This document shows positions 27,848-59,203 of a stretch of 64,000 bases of DNA, in pieces (position 1 is the first letter of the stretch; each line of letters starts with the position of its first letter). Source of the stretch: Elusimicrobiota bacterium (GTDB lineage: Bacteria > Elusimicrobiota > Elusimicrobia > UBA1565 > UBA9628). The DNA is taken from NCBI GenBank assembly GCA_027319565.1, contig DAHVNA010000005.1, forward strand, positions 548-64,547, written 5' to 3'. The notes under the pieces were generated by a model. That model searched no databases. It had not been told where the DNA came from and worked only from the letters and a program-made list of their open reading frames with translations. The translations under genes and the position numbers were made by a program.

Positions 27848-27931
27848 AAAAAAACTCCCATCGATAAAATCGATAGGAGTCATCAGCCCCAAGCAAATCC
27901 GGAGCGGTTTAGGCGAACTCCATCGCCTGTT
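27848..27931 (-). promoter_or_regulatory. Fluoride riboswitch (crcB RNA motif) with terminator-type expression platform
   Basis: Minus-strand RNA AGGCGAUGGAGUUCGCCUAAACCGCUCCGGAUUUGCUUGGGGCUGAUGACUCCUAUCGAUUUUAUCGAUGGGAGUUUUUUUAUG. Contains the P1 GGCG/CGCC stem, GAUGGAGU loop pairing with downstream ACUCC (pseudoknot), the UAAAC linker and the CUGAUGACUCCUA 3' consensus. Then a 12-bp hairpin plus U7 that also buries the GGGAG Shine-Dalgarno. Confidence 0.85.
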
Positions 27932-27988
27932 TGTTCATTGTATCAAATTCAGCAAAATATAATTCCCTGAAAATTGGTCTCCTTAAAA

Positions 27989-31131: not shown

Positions 31132-32018
31132 GACAAGAAACGGAAAATAACGGCAAGCGCGGAAAGAAGGCAAATTTTTTTACTTCCTTTTACCTTCCGC
31201 TTCTTTCCGTTTTTCTTTTCTCCGGATGCACGCATGATTTCTTTTTTCCAACCCACCGCCTCTACCGCCGCCCGGAAACGCTAGGCATCAACTCCGAGTG
31301 GTTTAAATTTCCCTCCAAAGATGGAACCGCCATCACCGGGCTCTTGATGAAAACATCCCAACCAAAAGCCAAGGGAATTTTAATTCAGTTTCACGGCAAT
31401 GGAGAGAACATGACTTCCCATTTCATGTTCTCTTATTGGTTGCCCGCCCAAGGTTATGATGTGTTAATTTTCGATTATCGCGGATACGGAGCCTCCGATG
31501 GGAAACCCTCGGTCAAAGGCGCCATTAAAGACGGAGAAGCGGCCATTGACTATGTTTTAAAGCGCCGGGATTTACCTTCGGCGGTATTTGTCTGGGGGCA
31601 AAGTTTGGGCGGAGCCATCGGCATCGCTTCTCTGGCCCTGGGGCGTTTTCAAAACCCGCGCATCAAGGCCCTCATCATCGAAAACTCTTTTGACTCTTAT
31701 CAGGATATGGCCGAGGCCGTATTGGGCCGCTCCTGGATTACCTGGCTTTTCCGCTGGCCGCTTTCAAGGCTGTTTATCTCCGACCGCTACGCGCCCATGA
31801 ATTACATGCGCCAATTACCGCATATTCCGATTCTGGCGATTGCCTCGACCAAAGATACGATTGTCCCATTTCGACTTGAAAAAAAACTTTTTGAGGAACT
31901 CCCTCAGCCAAAGACCCTGTGGATCGTTTCCGGGGGAGATCATTTGTCGGCCTTTACGCGATTTGGAGATTCTTTCAAGCCTAAACTTCTTGAATTTCTC
32001 AGCGAGCACCGCCATTAA
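31128..32018 (+). CDS. Alpha/beta-hydrolase lipoprotein (dienelactone hydrolase/S9-like)
   Basis: Lipobox LFSGC, nucleophile elbow GQSLGGAIG, 296 aa. Confidence 0.7.
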   Translation: MRQETENNGKRGKKANFFTSFYLPLLSVFLFSGCTHDFFFPTHRLYRRPETLGINSEWFKFPSKDGTAITGLLMKTSQPKAKGILIQFHGNGENMTSHFMFSYWLPAQGYDVLIFDYRGYGASDGKPSVKGAIKDGEAAIDYVLKRRDLPSAVFVWGQSLGGAIGIASLALGRFQNPRIKALIIENSFDSYQDMAEAVLGRSWITWLFRWPLSRLFISDRYAPMNYMRQLPHIPILAIASTKDTIVPFRLEKKLFEELPQPKTLWIVSGGDHLSAFTRFGDSFKPKLLEFLSEHRH

Positions 32019-52128: not shown

Positions 52129-52259
52129 AGGTAACTGTTCAGGTTCGTCATTCCGGCGAACGCCGGAATCCAGTGGTAAGCTTTCTGAGAGTCTGGACTC
52201 CGGCTTACGGATTGCCGGAGTGACGCGAGTAGTTACGCATATACTCATAAAGGAGAACA

Positions 52260-54162: not shown

Positions 54163-55515
54163 TTGGCCATGACAAGAATGTCCTTTATTTTCTTATCGGG
54201 AACTTGCGTTTGCCTCTCAACGCCGACAAATCTAAAAGCTACATCGTTTCCTCATCTCAGCAATCCCGCTCCGATCTTAACCCCAAACTCAAGCGCCAAC
54301 GACCCAGTCGCAAAAACTGAAAAGACAAAAATCTGGCCTCACACGGCGGTTTTGCGCGCCCTCTCAAACTGCTGGAAACCCGCCTGCTGGCCCTGGAAGA
54401 GTTCGGATTCGGAAATAAAAGCGGAGAAAGAGACCGTCAAAAAATACCCCCTTCCTATCCCTAAGACAAAACCGGCGCAGCAAAAAAAAATGCAAGTTCT
54501 ACTGAAAAATCTAAGCTCTAAATATCCCAAGGATATCCTCAACTCTTTGACGCAAGAAAATTCTTCTCCGACAGCAAGAATCAAGATTCTCAAGCATTTT
54601 GACAAAGAACAAGTCCGCTTGATTCATAAATACTGGCCCCACTGGGAAGATCCCGCGGCTCAAAATTCCACCACTCCAATCACTGTTGGCGGAGGCAGCG
54701 GAAGAACATCCAACGGGAAGGATAAAAACAAGAAGAACGGAATTTCAAATGGGATAGGCACGAACTCAGGTGGTGGCGGCGGGGGTTCTTCTAGCGGAGG
54801 CTCGGGGTCTTCCAGTCAGCCTAGTTCGCCCAACTTAAATCAATCTCCCACAAATTCCAATTCCAAAACGGCTTCTCTCCCAACCTCGATTAAACCTTTC
54901 CCCAAAGCGATTTCAAAACTTAAAAAAGCGCCCGCGCCCAAAATTAAAAACCCTTCCCAAAAAATAAAACATACTCCCACTGTCGTTCAAGCGGCGAAAA
55001 AACCGGCCGTGCCGGGGCCCGTCAATACAAAACCTTCGCTTCTTAATCCAAAAACCGGCGCTCCCATAAATTCTCATCTTCAAAAGCCTATTCCAGCATC
55101 AAAAGCCGACAAAAAATCTTCTAGCACTCAAATTTCAAAGAAGACACCCGCCCTCGCTCCAGGCTTTCTCCCTTTAAAAAACAATCCCTCTTCCGGAGCG
55201 GAAAAAAATGCGGCTTCAGGCTTAGGACTGGCAGATGAAAGCGCGAAAGCTCCATCCAAGAGCCTAAAAGCTTCAAAAGCCAAAGGCCCGTTTCCCCTCG
55301 CACCAAAGGCATCTCGAGCAGAAAAAGAGTCGGCGGTCCCGCCGCCCAATCCACCATCCCCGCAAAACCGTCCGGAAAAAGTCCAGCCTGAGAGCCGTCC
55401 CTTGCCCCTTGATTCCATAAGTCCGCGCCCTAAAACCTCTAACCCCTCTGTTTTTTTACTCTCCGCTTCTCTAGGCGCGCTCGCCATTTTAATTTTCATC
55501 CTTTGGATGATTTAA
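54163..55515 (+). CDS. Secreted Lys/Pro/Ser-rich low-complexity protein with C-terminal membrane anchor
   Basis: 450 aa. N-terminal hydrophobic signal, Gly/Ser run (GGGGGGSSSGGSGSS), long K/P/S-rich region, C-terminal TM (VFLLSASLGALAILIFILWMI). Confidence 0.5.
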   Translation: MAMTRMSFIFLSGTCVCLSTPTNLKATSFPHLSNPAPILTPNSSANDPVAKTEKTKIWPHTAVLRALSNCWKPACWPWKSSDSEIKAEKETVKKYPLPIPKTKPAQQKKMQVLLKNLSSKYPKDILNSLTQENSSPTARIKILKHFDKEQVRLIHKYWPHWEDPAAQNSTTPITVGGGSGRTSNGKDKNKKNGISNGIGTNSGGGGGGSSSGGSGSSSQPSSPNLNQSPTNSNSKTASLPTSIKPFPKAISKLKKAPAPKIKNPSQKIKHTPTVVQAAKKPAVPGPVNTKPSLLNPKTGAPINSHLQKPIPASKADKKSSSTQISKKTPALAPGFLPLKNNPSSGAEKNAASGLGLADESAKAPSKSLKASKAKGPFPLAPKASRAEKESAVPPPNPPSPQNRPEKVQPESRPLPLDSISPRPKTSNPSVFLLSASLGALAILIFILWMI

Positions 55516-55578: not shown

Positions 55579-56721
55579 ATGCGGCTCTCAAGGGGACAAA
55601 TTCTGATACCGGCTCTTTTAATGTTTCCGACCTTGATGCTTTTTGTCTATTTAATTTATGAGACCGCGAAACTCTCCCGTGAAAAAATTCGCCATCAATT
55701 CGCCATTGATTCCGCCGCTTTTGTCGAAATGACCAACTATTCGGACTTTATCAACCGCACCGCCTATGTCAACGGAGCGTTTCCGATGCGCATTTTCTAT
55801 GAAGGGTTTCATTCGACCCAATTAACCAACATGGGGAAAAGTAATTGCGATGCCGCAGTCAATCAATACGCAACCGGAGGCTCGTTAGCTCTCGATGATC
55901 TTCTCTATGCGGAAGGCGCCTTTCCCCGAGATCCCAATTACGCCTATAGTGATTCCGAAGCCCCGGGATCCGCCTCATGGAAAATTGCCTATGACCCTGC
56001 CTCTGTCCGCGGCCCCAACCTCAATACTCCCACCCCGACAAACTTTGATTCCTCCAACGCACACACTGATCAGTCTGGAAAAAACTGCGGGCAAACCCCA
56101 TGTCTGACCCTCATTAGCGAACAAACCGCCAATTGTTGGAATATCAATTGGCAGGACGCGACCGAGGTTATGAATCTCTATGTCCAGATCTATCAGCTCT
56201 TGGGTTCGGTTGAATCCGCCCAATTTTCGGTTTTGCAAAGACTGGCGACAGGACATCAATTTTTCACCAAATCTTATTGGCTTAACCTCGGCACGCAAGA
56301 AGCCCTCAGCGAAGCCCAGGGGGTCTCTTTTCCTCCGGTCAATTTTATGAGCGGCATCCAAATGCACTGCGTGCCCGCTCTTTTTTACTACGCCAATAAG
56401 CTGACGCCAGGAAATCCGTATCAGCCTTATGGAATATTCAACAACACTCCCGGAACCGCTATGACCAGCTCTATTAGCGGATGCGACGGGCTTTTTCAAT
56501 TGGCCACCGTCAACCCCAGCATGATCCAATCAGCGGAACAAGGAAGCCCTTACCCCGGCTGGCAAGCCTCGATTACCTGGACGCCTCCCCAGAATTCTTT
56601 TAACATCCCTCTGGGAACGGCCAAGGTTCACGCCACCGCCTCTTTATGGCCCGGCGCGAACGACGAGGCCTCTGTCTGGCCCGACCCCACACCCCATTTT
56701 CAAACGAGGCTTTATCCTTAA
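55579..56721 (+). CDS. TadG/TadE-like pseudopilin-type protein (Flp-pilus assembly-like N-terminus)
   Basis: N-terminus MRLSRGQILIPALLMFPTLMLFVYLIYETAKL resembles the TadE/TadG RGQ..hydrophobic..E motif. 380 aa. Cys-containing extracytoplasmic domain. Confidence 0.5.
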   Translation: MRLSRGQILIPALLMFPTLMLFVYLIYETAKLSREKIRHQFAIDSAAFVEMTNYSDFINRTAYVNGAFPMRIFYEGFHSTQLTNMGKSNCDAAVNQYATGGSLALDDLLYAEGAFPRDPNYAYSDSEAPGSASWKIAYDPASVRGPNLNTPTPTNFDSSNAHTDQSGKNCGQTPCLTLISEQTANCWNINWQDATEVMNLYVQIYQLLGSVESAQFSVLQRLATGHQFFTKSYWLNLGTQEALSEAQGVSFPPVNFMSGIQMHCVPALFYYANKLTPGNPYQPYGIFNNTPGTAMTSSISGCDGLFQLATVNPSMIQSAEQGSPYPGWQASITWTPPQNSFNIPLGTAKVHATASLWPGANDEASVWPDPTPHFQTRLYP

Positions 56722-56890
56722 CGGCAAGTAACGAGAAGCAAAAGAAAGAAACGGAAGGCAACGGAAAGAAATGGAAAGTAACGGAAAGAAAAAGAAAGAA
56801 CCAGAAAGCAACGGCAAGTATTCGCAGTTTTCCCTTGCTTTCCGTTGCCTTCCGTTACCTTCTGTGTCTCTCCGTTTCTTCCGTTCTCAC
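56721..56890. repeat. About 10 tandem copies of a 10-bp repeat (aCGGaAAGnA) followed by a 10-nt spacer and about 6 inverted copies. Contains a 19-bp perfect inverted repeat.
   Basis: Read directly: acggcaagta acgagaagca aaagaaagaa acggaaggca acggaaagaa atggaaagta acggaaagaa aaagaaagaa ccagaaagca acggcaagta (56721-56820), then tcccttgctt tccgttgcct tccgttacct tctgtgtctc tccgtttctt ccgttctcac. Arms 56750-56768 and 56838-56856 are perfectly complementary. Confidence 0.7.
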
Positions 56891-57349
56891 AAAGGTCAGG
56901 CCACGACCGAAACGGTTTTGCTGTTTCCGATATTTATGTTCTTTCTTTTTGTATTCGCCAAAATATTCGCGATGCTGATTTTAGTCCAAAAAATGGAAAT
57001 CGCATCCTACTACGGCGCCCGGCGTTGGCAGCTTGAATCCCACAGAAATGAAAGCGCCTATCCGGACAACGGACTTGAAGGCGATATTCAAAATAAAATC
57101 AGCTCTTATCTTGGATACGGAAGTCCAACTCAGAGCTTTTTAGGCCTGGCGCCGACCGGATCTAACGGCGGGGCTTCTTTTCAGTGTACGCCGACCGAGT
57201 TTTGGCAGGTTTGCACTCTCAAAGTTCAAACCAAACCCATTGACATCGCCTGGATGTATCAATCCCCAGGATATACTTTCGAGGTGACAAAATACGTGCC
57301 GCACCGCGATCGCCCAATCCCATTTGTCCTTCCAGGAATGGGACCTTGA
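56864..57349 (+). CDS. TadE-like pseudopilin-type protein (GTG start)
   Basis: GTG at 56864 gives MSLRFFRSHKGQATTETVLLFPIFMFFLFVFAKIFAML..IASYYGAR, the TadE-like N-terminal pattern. The annotated ATG ORF from 56771 would read through the repeat array. Confidence 0.45.
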   Translation: MSLRFFRSHKGQATTETVLLFPIFMFFLFVFAKIFAMLILVQKMEIASYYGARRWQLESHRNESAYPDNGLEGDIQNKISSYLGYGSPTQSFLGLAPTGSNGGASFQCTPTEFWQVCTLKVQTKPIDIAWMYQSPGYTFEVTKYVPHRDRPIPFVLPGMGP

Positions 57350-57397: not shown

Positions 57398-59203
57398 ATG
57401 ATCGCCTCTTATATTATTGAAGTCGCCGCCAGCATCGCGTTTTTATCCGTTTTGATGCTCCTCATCGGCCCGGGAAAGCGCGGGAGCCTCAAGGCTCGGA
57501 TTTGGCTTTTTTTCCAGCGCAATTGGCTGTGGTTTGCGATCGTCGCGGGAGTGATTATCTCCATTGTCATTCCGATTTGGTATATGGCCGGGATGGAAGA
57601 AAGCGTTCGCAAATACATCATTGGAATTAATATCGCTTCCCTGCCGTGGGGAATCATCCAAACCTTGGTCTTTGTCGGATTTCTCTATTTACTCCAATAT
57701 GGCGGCGGATTCGCCCAATTCAGGAAATCTCGGGTCAAAGAGGGCCATGTCAATGTCAGGTTTTCAGACGTCATCGGTCTCAATGAGGCCAAGAAAGACG
57801 CCTGGGAAATGGTCCAACTCATAAAAGACCGCGCGGCCTTAAAAAAAGTCGGCGGGAAAATTCTTCATGGGATGCTCATGGTCGGACCGCCGGGATGCGG
57901 GAAAACTCTTCTCGCAAAAGCCATCGCCACCGAAGCTGGCGTTCCTTTCTTATCGGCCTCGGGCTCGGAATTTGTCGAGGTCTTTGTAGGGGTCGGAGCC
58001 GCGCGCGTCAGAAAGCTTTTCAAACAAGCCCGGCAATTTTCAAAAGCCTACGGGGCTTGCATCATCTTTATCGATGAATTGGAGGTTCTGGGGCGTTCTC
58101 GTGTTTATTTTGACGCCTTTGGCGGAAACCAGGAAGGCAATCAAACCCTCAATCAGCTTTTAGTTGAAATGGACGGTCTCAATGACGATGGAAGTCCGAT
58201 TGTCGTCATCGGAGCCATGAACGCCCAAGAAGAAGTCTTGGACGCCGCTCTATTGCGCCCCGGACGGTTTGACCGCACGATAGCCATCGGACGCCCGAAT
58301 CTCCAGGAACGCACCGAGATTTTTGATTACTACGCGAAAAAAATTAATCTTGATCCCAATATTGATATCGCGCGTTTGGCGAGAAAAGCGGTTTATAAAA
58401 CTCCGGCGGAAATAGAAAATATCCTTAAGGAATCGGCCCTGATTGCGACTCGCGATCGCCGGGAAGTGATCACTTACAAAGATATTTCCTCCGCTATTGA
58501 AAGAATCGAACTCGGAGTCGCTCATCGCCTCAATATGACGCCCCACGAAAGGGAAATGACCGCGTTTCACGAAGCGGGACACCTTCTGATCCTCTATTTG
58601 ACGCACCCCACTAATGACGTCTTTAAAGCGTCCATTATCCAGCGCGGAGGAATCTTGGGAGTCGTCCATTCCATTCCCAGAGAAGAGCTCTTTAGCTCTG
58701 ACATGAATACGCTCAAAGCCCATATCAAGGTCGCCTTGGGCGGGTACATGGCGGAAAAACTCAGGTTCGGCGTCACGACCGACGGCGTGGCCTCCGATTT
58801 CGCAAACGCGACGACCATCGCCCACAACATGGTTTGGAGATATGGGATGGGCGAAAAGGGATTTGTCGGAGATTACACCCGCATCCCGAAAGAACAGCTT
58901 TCCGAGGCGCTCAAAGAACGCCTTAACGCCGCCACCCAAAGACTTCTCCAACAATCAACGGAAGAAGTCGAGATGACGTTAAAAACCGAATCGGTGATTC
59001 TGGAGCGTTTCGCGCAGGAGCTTCTCAAGCGCGACGAACTCGATTACGATGAAATCGTGGCCATTTTCCAGGAATACGGAAAGCCACCCAAGTCTCTTCC
59101 CTCTAATTCCGAGGTCTCACAGCCCAAAACAGAGCCGGTGCTTCCCGTCATCGCCACTCATGAGACCCCAAGTCCTAATGAATCTTTAAAGCCGTTAGAA
59201 TAA
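57398..59203 (+). CDS. FtsH-like ATP-dependent zinc metalloprotease paralog (polytopic N-terminus, no periplasmic domain, Pro-rich C-terminal tail)
   Basis: 3-4 N-terminal TM helices. AAA module with variant Walker A GPPGCGKT, pore loop FVGVG, Walker B IFIDELE, SRH. M41 HEXXH FHEAGHLL. 601 aa. Confidence 0.8.
   Translation: MIASYIIEVAASIAFLSVLMLLIGPGKRGSLKARIWLFFQRNWLWFAIVAGVIISIVIPIWYMAGMEESVRKYIIGINIASLPWGIIQTLVFVGFLYLLQYGGGFAQFRKSRVKEGHVNVRFSDVIGLNEAKKDAWEMVQLIKDRAALKKVGGKILHGMLMVGPPGCGKTLLAKAIATEAGVPFLSASGSEFVEVFVGVGAARVRKLFKQARQFSKAYGACIIFIDELEVLGRSRVYFDAFGGNQEGNQTLNQLLVEMDGLNDDGSPIVVIGAMNAQEEVLDAALLRPGRFDRTIAIGRPNLQERTEIFDYYAKKINLDPNIDIARLARKAVYKTPAEIENILKESALIATRDRREVITYKDISSAIERIELGVAHRLNMTPHEREMTAFHEAGHLLILYLTHPTNDVFKASIIQRGGILGVVHSIPREELFSSDMNTLKAHIKVALGGYMAEKLRFGVTTDGVASDFANATTIAHNMVWRYGMGEKGFVGDYTRIPKEQLSEALKERLNAATQRLLQQSTEEVEMTLKTESVILERFAQELLKRDELDYDEIVAIFQEYGKPPKSLPSNSEVSQPKTEPVLPVIATHETPSPNESLKPLE

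Follow-up and report, generated by a model that had tools for sequence, protein, structure and literature searches.

In the 64,000-nucleotide (nt) stretch of contig DAHVNA010000005.1 analysed here (Elusimicrobiota bacterium, assembly GCA_027319565.1; hereafter the window), the junction between a tadG-like and a tadE-like gene at about 56.8 kb is occupied by two inverted arrays of degenerate 10-nt units. The arrays can fold back on each other as one long RNA hairpin. Arms that are complementary to each other recur at the same junction in related loci, homologous arrays are translated in several of these, and both the number of units and the junction allele itself are polymorphic. It is proposed that the element is a cis-acting mRNA hairpin, resembling repetitive extragenic palindromic (REP) elements and the intervening sequences (IVSs) of rRNA, which gates the translation or processing of tadE; on the folding predictions and comparisons presented below, this function is quite possible, if short of probable. 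The combination of features is unusual; the kinds of element that it brings together, namely REP/IVS-like fold-backs and coding repeats in leader regions, are already known.

Structure of the array and its inverted copy

The left arm (56721-56820, plus strand) consists of ten head-to-tail 10-nt units which begin directly after the TAA of the tadG-like open reading frame (ORF), as read over positions 56400-57200. These units are purine-rich with the consensus ACGGAAAGnA and are, in order, acggcaagta, acgagaagca, aaagaaagaa, acggaaggca, acggaaagaa, atggaaagta, acggaaagaa, aaagaaagaa, ccagaaagca and acggcaagta. Units 1 and 10 are identical, and the first-pass annotation of the window was correct in describing ten units bracketed by this copy. 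Its description of the units as strict was too strong: analysis by Tandem Repeats Finder (TRF) showed a degenerate array with a period of 10, 7.5 copies and 75% matches (56744-56818). A repeat search identified seven in-register copies with a spacing of exactly 10 nt.

A short spacer of 8-10 nt (56821-56828, from the sequence read and TRF) separates this array from the right arm (56829-56890, plus strand), which is made up of about six reverse-complement units (TTTCCGTTGC-like). The right arm is pyrimidine-rich, contains no stop codon in any frame and lies within the leader-peptide frame of the tadE-like gene. TRF analysis of it gave a period of 10 with 5.8 copies and 75% matches (56829-56885). 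The six or so inverted units had been noticed before, as had a perfect inverted repeat of 19 bp, and both were confirmed: the left half of the latter (56750-56768, plus strand; aacggaaggcaacggaaag) contains the Shine-Dalgarno (SD)-like motifs GGAAGG and GGAAAG and has a pairing probability of 0.96-1.0, while its right half (56838-56856, plus strand; ctttccgttgccttccgtt) was read directly from the sequence. Six alternative inverted-repeat registers of 43-57 nt were also found, with 71-79% complementarity, and this feature accounts for the four longest inverted repeats found in the window.

The 221 nt around the feature are 100% identical in three contigs of other assemblies (L086-L088), each of which encodes an identical TadG-like protein. 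The feature is therefore real, and an assembly artefact is ruled out. A CRISPR (clustered regularly interspaced short palindromic repeats) array is likewise ruled out, in agreement with the first-pass annotation, as the units are 10 nt long, head-to-tail and without spacers, compared with CRISPR repeats of about 24-48 nt that alternate with unique spacers of similar length.

Predicted RNA folding

The RNA of positions 56700-56910 is predicted to fold with an energy of -70.4 kcal/mol, compared with -48.5 +/- 4.2 kcal/mol in 200 dinucleotide shuffles (z-score -5.3, 0/200 as low). The whole hairpin (56716-56896, plus strand) comprises approximately 60 imperfect base pairs with an energy of -62.0 kcal/mol (z -5.75, 0/300 shuffles), and the 160-nt stretch starting at 56721 is the most structured of the window after correction for GC content. 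In the ensemble fold, pairing probability is high for the tadG stop codon (0.96-0.99), the SD-like motifs GGAAGG and GGAAAG, the ATG at 56771, the GTG at 56864 and the Gly codon at the 3' boundary. Folding thus supports the earlier suggestion of a very long RNA hairpin that would sequester the downstream start. Units 1-6.5 of the left arm pair with the right arm, and units 7.5-10 (56786-56820) form the apical loop. Left-arm units at 56782-56801, which stay unpaired in the main hairpin, show 85% complementarity over 20 nt with 56938-56957, where the MFFLFVF segment of the mature TadE-like protein is encoded. The match could be due to chance, as Lys codons complement Phe/Leu codons, or could reflect an alternative pairing.

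No intrinsic terminator was identified inside 56720-56890. The stem is followed by ctcacaaaggtcagg without a T-run, and the element is not an ordinary terminator, as the first-pass annotation had also stated. Searching Rfam at the gathering threshold gave no match at the feature, its only match being a fluoride riboswitch elsewhere in the window. A permissive Rfam search returned only sub-threshold models of eukaryotic microRNA precursors on both strands, these being generic matches to long hairpins. A distant blastn search of a plasmid collection gave no match.

The predicted TadE-like leader and its candidate start codons

The 3' boundary of the variable segment is formed by the codons for G/QATTE (56894-56911, plus strand; the slash marks the putative prepilin-type cleavage site, with Gly at -1 and Glu at +5), where the protein reads ...HK G/QATTETVLLFPIFMFFLFVF. 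Among 30 aligned homologues, the motif G-x-A-x-x-E is invariant in G, A and E and is followed by a hydrophobic helix; the N-terminal extension ahead of the Gly varies from about 5 to 60 residues. Gly at -1 and Glu at +5 together with a hydrophobic helix is the pattern of a type IV prepilin-like leader. The TadE-like protein is predicted to carry such a leader (TadE-type), which would be removed by cleavage after the Gly.

Two codons are candidates for the start of the TadE-like gene. The most likely is an ATG in unit 6 of the left arm (56771-56773, plus strand), which is the first in-frame start after a stop codon and predicts a leader of 41 residues in a protein of 192 residues with a mature part of about 151 residues (gene at 56771-57349, plus strand). 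It is the sole candidate start common to the window and to the related locus L001, being 123 nt from the Gly codon in both with no indel between them, and L006 has an in-frame left-arm ATG of its own at -138. The alternative is a GTG (56864-56866, plus strand; leader of 10 residues), which the first-pass annotation took to be the likely start. This now appears doubtful, as L001 has GTT at the same place (and TTG three codons upstream where the window has TTA) and the GTG has no SD complementarity. The calculated duplex with the anti-SD sequence has an energy of -5.7 kcal/mol for the ATG and +1.2 kcal/mol for the GTG; since an SD sequence is missing from many genes of this genome, the difference favours the ATG only mildly.

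The repeats had been described as not coding, which does not hold for the right arm. Its last 27-30 nt are coding under either start, and in L077, L021, L025, L070 and L029 every in-frame ATG, GTG or TTG is located upstream of the 3' array, so that in these loci the homologous array must form a translated part of the leader. L021 and L025 differ by exactly 30 nt (three units), a difference that preserves the frame. In the window, left-arm units 6-10 are probably coding as well. Identity across four assemblies excludes the alternative that an assembly frameshift is responsible. The window and L001 differ in length by 33 nt upstream of the ATG. Within the 41 leader codons, substitutions between them number 5, 7 and 9 at codon positions 1, 2 and 3 (17% per site), compared with 10, 3 and 31 in the mature part. 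The leader peptide is free of purifying selection, as expected if it is discarded. A protein search with the 41-residue leader for other N-termini derived from the element gave no candidate that shared enough 5-residue words.

The tadG-tadE junction in related loci

The junction was compared among 80 species-representative, 39 metagenome and several strain-level contigs. A metagenome scan for closer relatives gave a best match of 66% identity and was useful for more distant lineages only. The distance between the tadG-like stop codon and the Gly codon ranges from 14 to 440 nt and is mostly 86 nt or less, placing the window (175 nt) in an expanded minority. Those short junctions whose sequence was read possess an ATGA-type stop/start overlap. 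Among the relatives with 87-93% protein identity, L003/L009, L007/L008 and L010 have the ATGA overlap and no array, while L001/L002 and L006 have TTAA/CTAA instead of ATGA and a shorter version of the array, consisting in L006 of 9/10-nt units with indels. Of the 80 upstream regions, 27 were found by TRF to contain short tandem arrays in the 350 nt preceding the Gly codon. An array that ends only a few nt short of this codon is seen in about ten lineages, and the metagenome loci provide further cases.

The arms of these arrays are of unrelated sequence and unit length, yet they share one arrangement, with one arm extending from the tadG stop codon and its complement extending up to the Gly codon. 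The 5' and 3' units are AACGGAAAG and CTTTCCGTT in the window, L001, L006 and L077; GGGAACGGAA (directly after the tadG stop codon, about 500 nt upstream) and TTCCGTTCC in L021 and L025; GCCATAA and TTATGGC in L079 and L108; GGGATGA and TCATCCC in L029; GAGGGGTTA and TAGCCCCTC in L065 and L103; and AGGCTGA and TCAGCCT in L062, L112 and L113. An exception is L070, where the 3' arm (TCATCCC, 19 copies) is accompanied by a non-complementary 5' array (AGTAACC, 12.7 copies).

Fold z-scores of the junctions, calculated from 20 nt before the stop codon to 15 nt after the Gly codon and binned by the distance between the two codons, had a mean of -2.09 at distances of at least 95 nt (52% with z<-2), -1.54 at 60-94 nt (25%) and +0.7 below 60 nt (0%). 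Length-matched controls inside tadE and tadG showed z<-2 in 0-5% of cases. The 60 nt after the stop codon and the 60 nt before the Gly codon form a duplex of -38.7 kcal/mol when taken from the same locus, compared with -29.5 kcal/mol across loci; among 29 dereplicated lineages, none of 10,000 permutations was as low (p<1e-4). The short allele of L008, which has no array, is also structured (windows with z of about -3.9).

Of 27 lineages, 22 combine a purine-rich 5' arm (mean 0.66) with a pyrimidine-rich 3' arm (0.38). This orientation bias is explained by the fact that a stop codon is impossible in a pyrimidine tract, whichever frame is read. The stems contain 39 G.U pairs versus 16 A.C mismatches, which is weak evidence for the strand and is biased by the scoring of mismatches. 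On these comparisons, the conserved property is strand-specific complementarity of the arms and not phasing at 10 bp.

Proposed mechanism

In the proposed mechanism, the fold-back of two inverted degenerate 10-nt arrays would fill the segment that is free of mature-protein constraint, from the tadG-like stop codon to the cleavage-site Gly codon. The element would be transcribed within a message covering tadG, tadE and a downstream ftsH-like gene, and its pyrimidine-rich 3' arm, probably together with half of the purine-rich 5' arm, would be translated into a leader peptide that is later discarded. In this message, the stem is predicted to bury the tadG stop codon, the SD-like motifs and both candidate starts of tadE. 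Translation of tadE would then require that ribosomes completing tadG open the stem, or that initiation precedes transcription of the 3' arm. A stem of this length would also be a natural substrate for a double-strand-specific ribonuclease (RNase) such as RNase III. The overall outcome would be lower expression of tadE (and possibly ftsH) relative to tadG, and an uncoupling of the two. The arrays would grow, shrink and change register by replication slippage, and the junction would be swapped by recombination between close strains.

Hairpins between the cistrons of an operon are familiar as devices for translational coupling or differential expression, for instance at the coat/replicase junction of RNA phages and in ribosomal-protein operons. 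As in those hairpins, the start region of the downstream gene is predicted to be paired, and the base of the stem marks the end of the upstream cistron. Relatives without the hairpin use the ATGA overlap, a form of direct coupling. The stem described here differs in being far longer than needed, in being built of repeats and in being polymorphic between near-identical strains. There is precedent among palindromic elements also. When a REP hairpin lies less than 16 nt from a stop codon, it is reported to cause ribosome stalling and reduced translation (PMC12306157), and Correia elements are reported to bind RNase III (PMC2649163).

Several observations weigh against this mechanism. Co-transcription, leader cleavage, occlusion of translation and RNase cleavage are steps that we infer. 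The minus strand folds about equally well (-74.8 kcal/mol, z -4.3). In several lineages with 7-nt units the start codon is located in the loop, outside the stem, so that occlusion of the start is not universal. The array is present or missing between nearly identical genomes and is thus dispensable. Between the window and L001 the arms have diverged by 17% per site, about the neutral rate (20% at third codon positions), and compensatory changes amount to a single, uninformative double change; the stem could on these grounds be a slowly decaying palindrome. Finally, strong hairpins at other operon junctions point to a general class of element and not to a tadE-specific regulator.

Relation to palindromic elements and intervening sequences

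The most serious rival, though a somewhat unlikely one, is that the hairpin is a selfish or neutral palindromic element without host function, of the REP/REPIN, MITE (miniature inverted-repeat transposable element) or IVS kind. It would belong to a genome-specific family which spreads by transposition, gene conversion or recombination and survives where it is harmless, in spacers and in cleaved-leader segments. The hairpin would be a by-product of terminal inverted repeats, and the tandem units a by-product of slippage. The divergence of the arms at a neutral rate and the near absence of compensatory change are as expected under this explanation.

A second, smaller hairpin in the window favours it further. 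This hairpin (31135-31222, plus strand) is built from the same AACGGAAA/TTTCCGTT motif 25 kb away. A TTGA stop/start overlap immediately precedes it, and it supplies the coding sequence for the entire signal peptide (MRQETENNGKRGKKANFFTSFYLPLLSVFLFSGC) of a lipoprotein alpha/beta hydrolase. Its right arm resembles that of the 56.8-kb hairpin (score 33 versus a null maximum of 28). Folding of the 88-nt core gave a z-score of -2.98; a first fold with flanks was not significant (z 0.03). The DNA of a 92%-identical relative (L130) matches that of the window perfectly as far as the TTGA and once more beginning at the lipobox Cys codon, but between these flanks it has a different, ordinary signal-peptide segment. 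The hairpin replaces exactly the signal-peptide segment. Within the 64 kb the motif was seen only twice, and both copies overlap leader-coding sequence.

Comparable structures occur at other operon junctions of related loci. L065 carries inverted AAGGATA/TATCCTT arrays of one family at two further junctions (L065:320-500 and L065:2360-2590), as would be expected of a mobile family. L013 has a perfect palindrome containing GTGAAAA/GTGAAAG units (L013:2990-3060), and a REP-like cluster of GTGCCTGG/CCAGGC repeats follows the ftsH-like gene of L029 (L029:4840-5060). REP, bacterial interspersed mosaic elements (BIMEs), REPINs, BOX, enterobacterial repetitive intergenic consensus (ERIC) and Correia elements are imperfect palindromes dispersed at gene junctions of operons, are co-transcribed as mRNA hairpins and form genome-specific families. 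The 56.8-kb element resembles them, its stem beginning in the last tadG codons and a second copy of its motif being located 25 kb away. It differs from REP, BIME and REPIN elements in that its arms are tandem arrays of 7-10-nt units across the loci compared and in that it enters the leader peptide of the next gene and is translated with it. No REP-associated tyrosine transposase (RAYT) turned up in the window or in the 2-6.5-kb related loci, in analyses that included no search aimed at RAYT.

Resemblance to the IVSs of 23S rRNA is closer in some relatives than in the window. Known IVSs consist of a stem of terminal inverted repeats, are excised by RNase III, optionally carry an S23p ORF, show strain-variable heptamer repeats and have been described as selfish (PMC4990558). 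At the tadG-tadE junction of L029, this architecture is matched exactly: the stem encloses a plus-strand PF05635 gene (23S rRNA-intervening sequence protein, an Avd-like four-helix bundle; L029:2070-2510, E-value 6e-41) in frame with the TadE-like ORF. Genes of the same family are located on the minus strand in L021 (L021:1337-1912), L025 (L025:1968-2513) and L101 (L101:539-883), with a complete hairpin on one side and a further copy of the 3' array on the other. The presence of PF05635 genes inside these stem-loops is in line with a selfish origin. What the window copy has in common with IVSs is a long enclosing stem made by terminal inverted repeats. It differs in that its site is an mRNA junction between two protein-coding genes, and not helix 25 or 45 of 23S rRNA (the window gave no rRNA match), and in having no ORF, tblastn identifying no S23p/PF05635 ORF in the window.

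Polymorphism of the junction is likewise as a selfish element would predict. L001 possesses an array allele of 143 nt, and L008 a short ATGA allele of 62 nt with two mini-hairpins. The two loci are 99.74% identical over 2308 nt from 1 nt before the Gly codon and 95.2% identical over 693 nt upstream of the junction, with the junction between unalignable. In the comparison of L001:694-842 with L008:2432-2499, the recombination breakpoint coincides with the boundary between hairpin and Gly codon. A neighbour-joining tree of the downstream 2.25 kb has the topology (WIN,(L007,(L008,L001))), where WIN is the window, and the junction alleles are discordant with this phylogeny. The junction is exchanged by recombination within a population.

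Other findings fit a selfish element less well. Some selection, at the minimum for stop-free translation, is needed to account for the orientation bias and for unrelated sequences recurring at one junction, and short alleles without an array are also unusually structured. A partly local origin is suggested by the left arm, which around the ATG aligns with ordinary, purine-rich leader-coding sequence of L010 encoding MNAETKSKGKPRKAKES. TTCCGT comprises Phe-Arg codons, and leaders of the 'RLFRRR' type are common in the family. It is plausible from these alignments that the units arose through local slippage plus inverted duplication of leader-coding sequence, which would explain the presence of the AACGGAA core in distant lineages without a binding protein.

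Slippage and possible phase variation

A quite improbable explanation is that the junction is a contingency (phase-variable) locus, at which slippage of 10-nt units would shift the frame between the start codon and the mature TadE-like protein and so switch the gene on, off or between start codons. The precedent is Neisseria opa, where CTCTT repeats in the leader-peptide region are phase-variable (PMC3960869). The likeness consists of short, pyrimidine-rich repeats, not a multiple of three in length, in the 5' segment encoding a cleaved leader; the arrays compared here have units of 10, 7 or 8 nt in leader-coding segments, that of the window being 10 nt. Slippage was observed in one lineage. 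Over about 270 nt, L077/L109 match L089/L090 perfectly apart from an indel of 20 nt (two units) in the 3' array; this indel shifts the mature frame from a first ATG (with an SD-like motif) to a second ATG in another frame. The switch between ATGs in different frames is a likeness to phase-variable coding repeats, among them those of Haemophilus influenzae lic1, in which CAAT repeats are combined with alternative ATGs. Simulated unit changes gave three states, one of them without any start. L070 carries nineteen near-perfect TCATCCC heptamers (95% matches) in its TadE-like leader-coding region (about L070:2370-2505, -147 to -12 from the Gly codon), and no other array in the data set is as good a candidate for genuine slipped-strand phase variation.

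Against this explanation, only the two in-frame states were observed, and no out-of-frame allele was seen in any of the lineages. The window array, with 75% matches compared with 95% in L070, is degenerate and should slip rarely, and no length variation was seen among the four assemblies. As to the earlier suggestion of phase variation, a slippage allele exists in the L077 lineage and none was seen for the window's own array. With the GTG as start, upstream units would not alter the frame. The inverted upstream array and its hairpin, which are missing in classical contingency loci, would also be left unexplained. Classical phase variation is possible and weakly supported for the degenerate array of the window.

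Least probable by a wide margin is a DNA-level array of phased binding sites or bent DNA, in which a regulator bound cooperatively to ACGGAAAGnA on one face of the helix would control downstream transcription: the exact 10-nt spacing of the seven in-register copies, the A-tract units and the AACGGAA core common to the distant L077 and L021 lineages are in its favour, but the helical phasing stressed by the first-pass annotation is not kept among relatives (L006 has 9/10-nt units with indels, other lineages have 7-nt units, and the close relatives L003, L007, L008 and L010 have no array), an outcome which that annotation had itself named as refuting, the common core is explained by the Phe-Arg codons of the leader, strand asymmetry and a coding right arm misfit a symmetric DNA site, no promoter-like site was found within or just after the array, and the comparative data have largely refuted it already.

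Genomic context

The TadG-like gene (55579-56721, plus strand) is an ORF of 380 residues, the last codons of which, together with the TAA at 56719-56721, form the 5' base of the hairpin. The C-terminus of its product (...PTPHFQTRLYP) follows a pattern (...PTPxFQxRxYP, then the stop codon) that is kept in about 110 related loci; the protein has no match in Pfam. The product of the downstream ORF has a weak Pfam match to TadE (19.6 bits, under the curated cut-off of 22.9) which begins at the cleavage-site Gly. Homologues of the TadE-like protein number 385, nearly all of them from Elusimicrobia. The conserved downstream neighbour encodes an FtsH-like AAA+/M41 protease (57398-59203, plus strand), and the gene order of tadG-like, tadE-like and FtsH-like protease genes is constant in related loci across Elusimicrobia.

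A full Tad pilus locus nearby was considered and rejected: the upstream genes encode the glycine-cleavage system, L21, Obg, squalene/phytoene synthases and dCTP deaminase, and no genes of the Tad secretion machinery are located nearby in the window. The annotation of the TadG-like and TadE-like proteins as pilus components may be misleading. Just upstream of the tadG-like gene, an ORF (54163-55515, plus strand) encodes a low-complexity protein of 450 residues, rich in Ser, Pro, Lys and Gly, with a C-terminal hydrophobic segment and no Pfam match; an ORF of 448-466 residues is found at the equivalent position in related loci.

Two other structured RNA or DNA features were observed in the window. 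A fluoride riboswitch (crcB motif, Rfam RF01734) is located at 27867-27936 on the minus strand (57.7 bits, E-value 2e-13). A strong GC-rich palindrome (cgtcattccggcgaacgccggaatc ... ccggagtgacg) is located between amine-oxidase-like and dCTP-deaminase-like genes (52140-52240, plus strand); it ranks second in the window for structure, and its motif is unrelated to that of the 56.8-kb hairpin.

Implications for Elusimicrobia

A broader generalisation, which is speculative and on balance unlikely, is that Elusimicrobia carry an undescribed class of IVS-like fold-back elements in their mRNAs. The arms of such elements would be inverted tandem arrays of 7-10-nt units, colonising leader or signal-peptide segments and junctions in operons of envelope proteins. 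The purine-rich arm would supply SD-like motifs and a Lys/Glu-rich N-terminus and the pyrimidine-rich arm a stop-free hydrophobic continuation, together making a ready-made leader. Some copies would be associated with Avd-like PF05635 genes, and the class would be subject to processing by RNase III, variation by slippage and swapping by recombination. If so, populations would gain a rapidly tunable dial on the expression of minor-pilin-like proteins.

If the RNA-level reading of the 56.8-kb element is correct, a hairpin built of repeats would double as a cis-regulatory structure and as coding sequence for a disposable leader, in a phylum with almost no experimental genetics. The use of one junction by unrelated units with complementary arms, the presence/absence alleles at 99.7% identity and the slippage alleles that switch start codons offer a testable model of how the stoichiometry of an operon may be quickly retuned. 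In practical terms, gene callers will give these proteins variable N-termini of low complexity. The PF05635 genes found in the same stem-loops link the intervening sequences of rRNA to mRNA contexts, which is relevant to a long-standing question, the nature of IVS elements and of their four-helix-bundle proteins.

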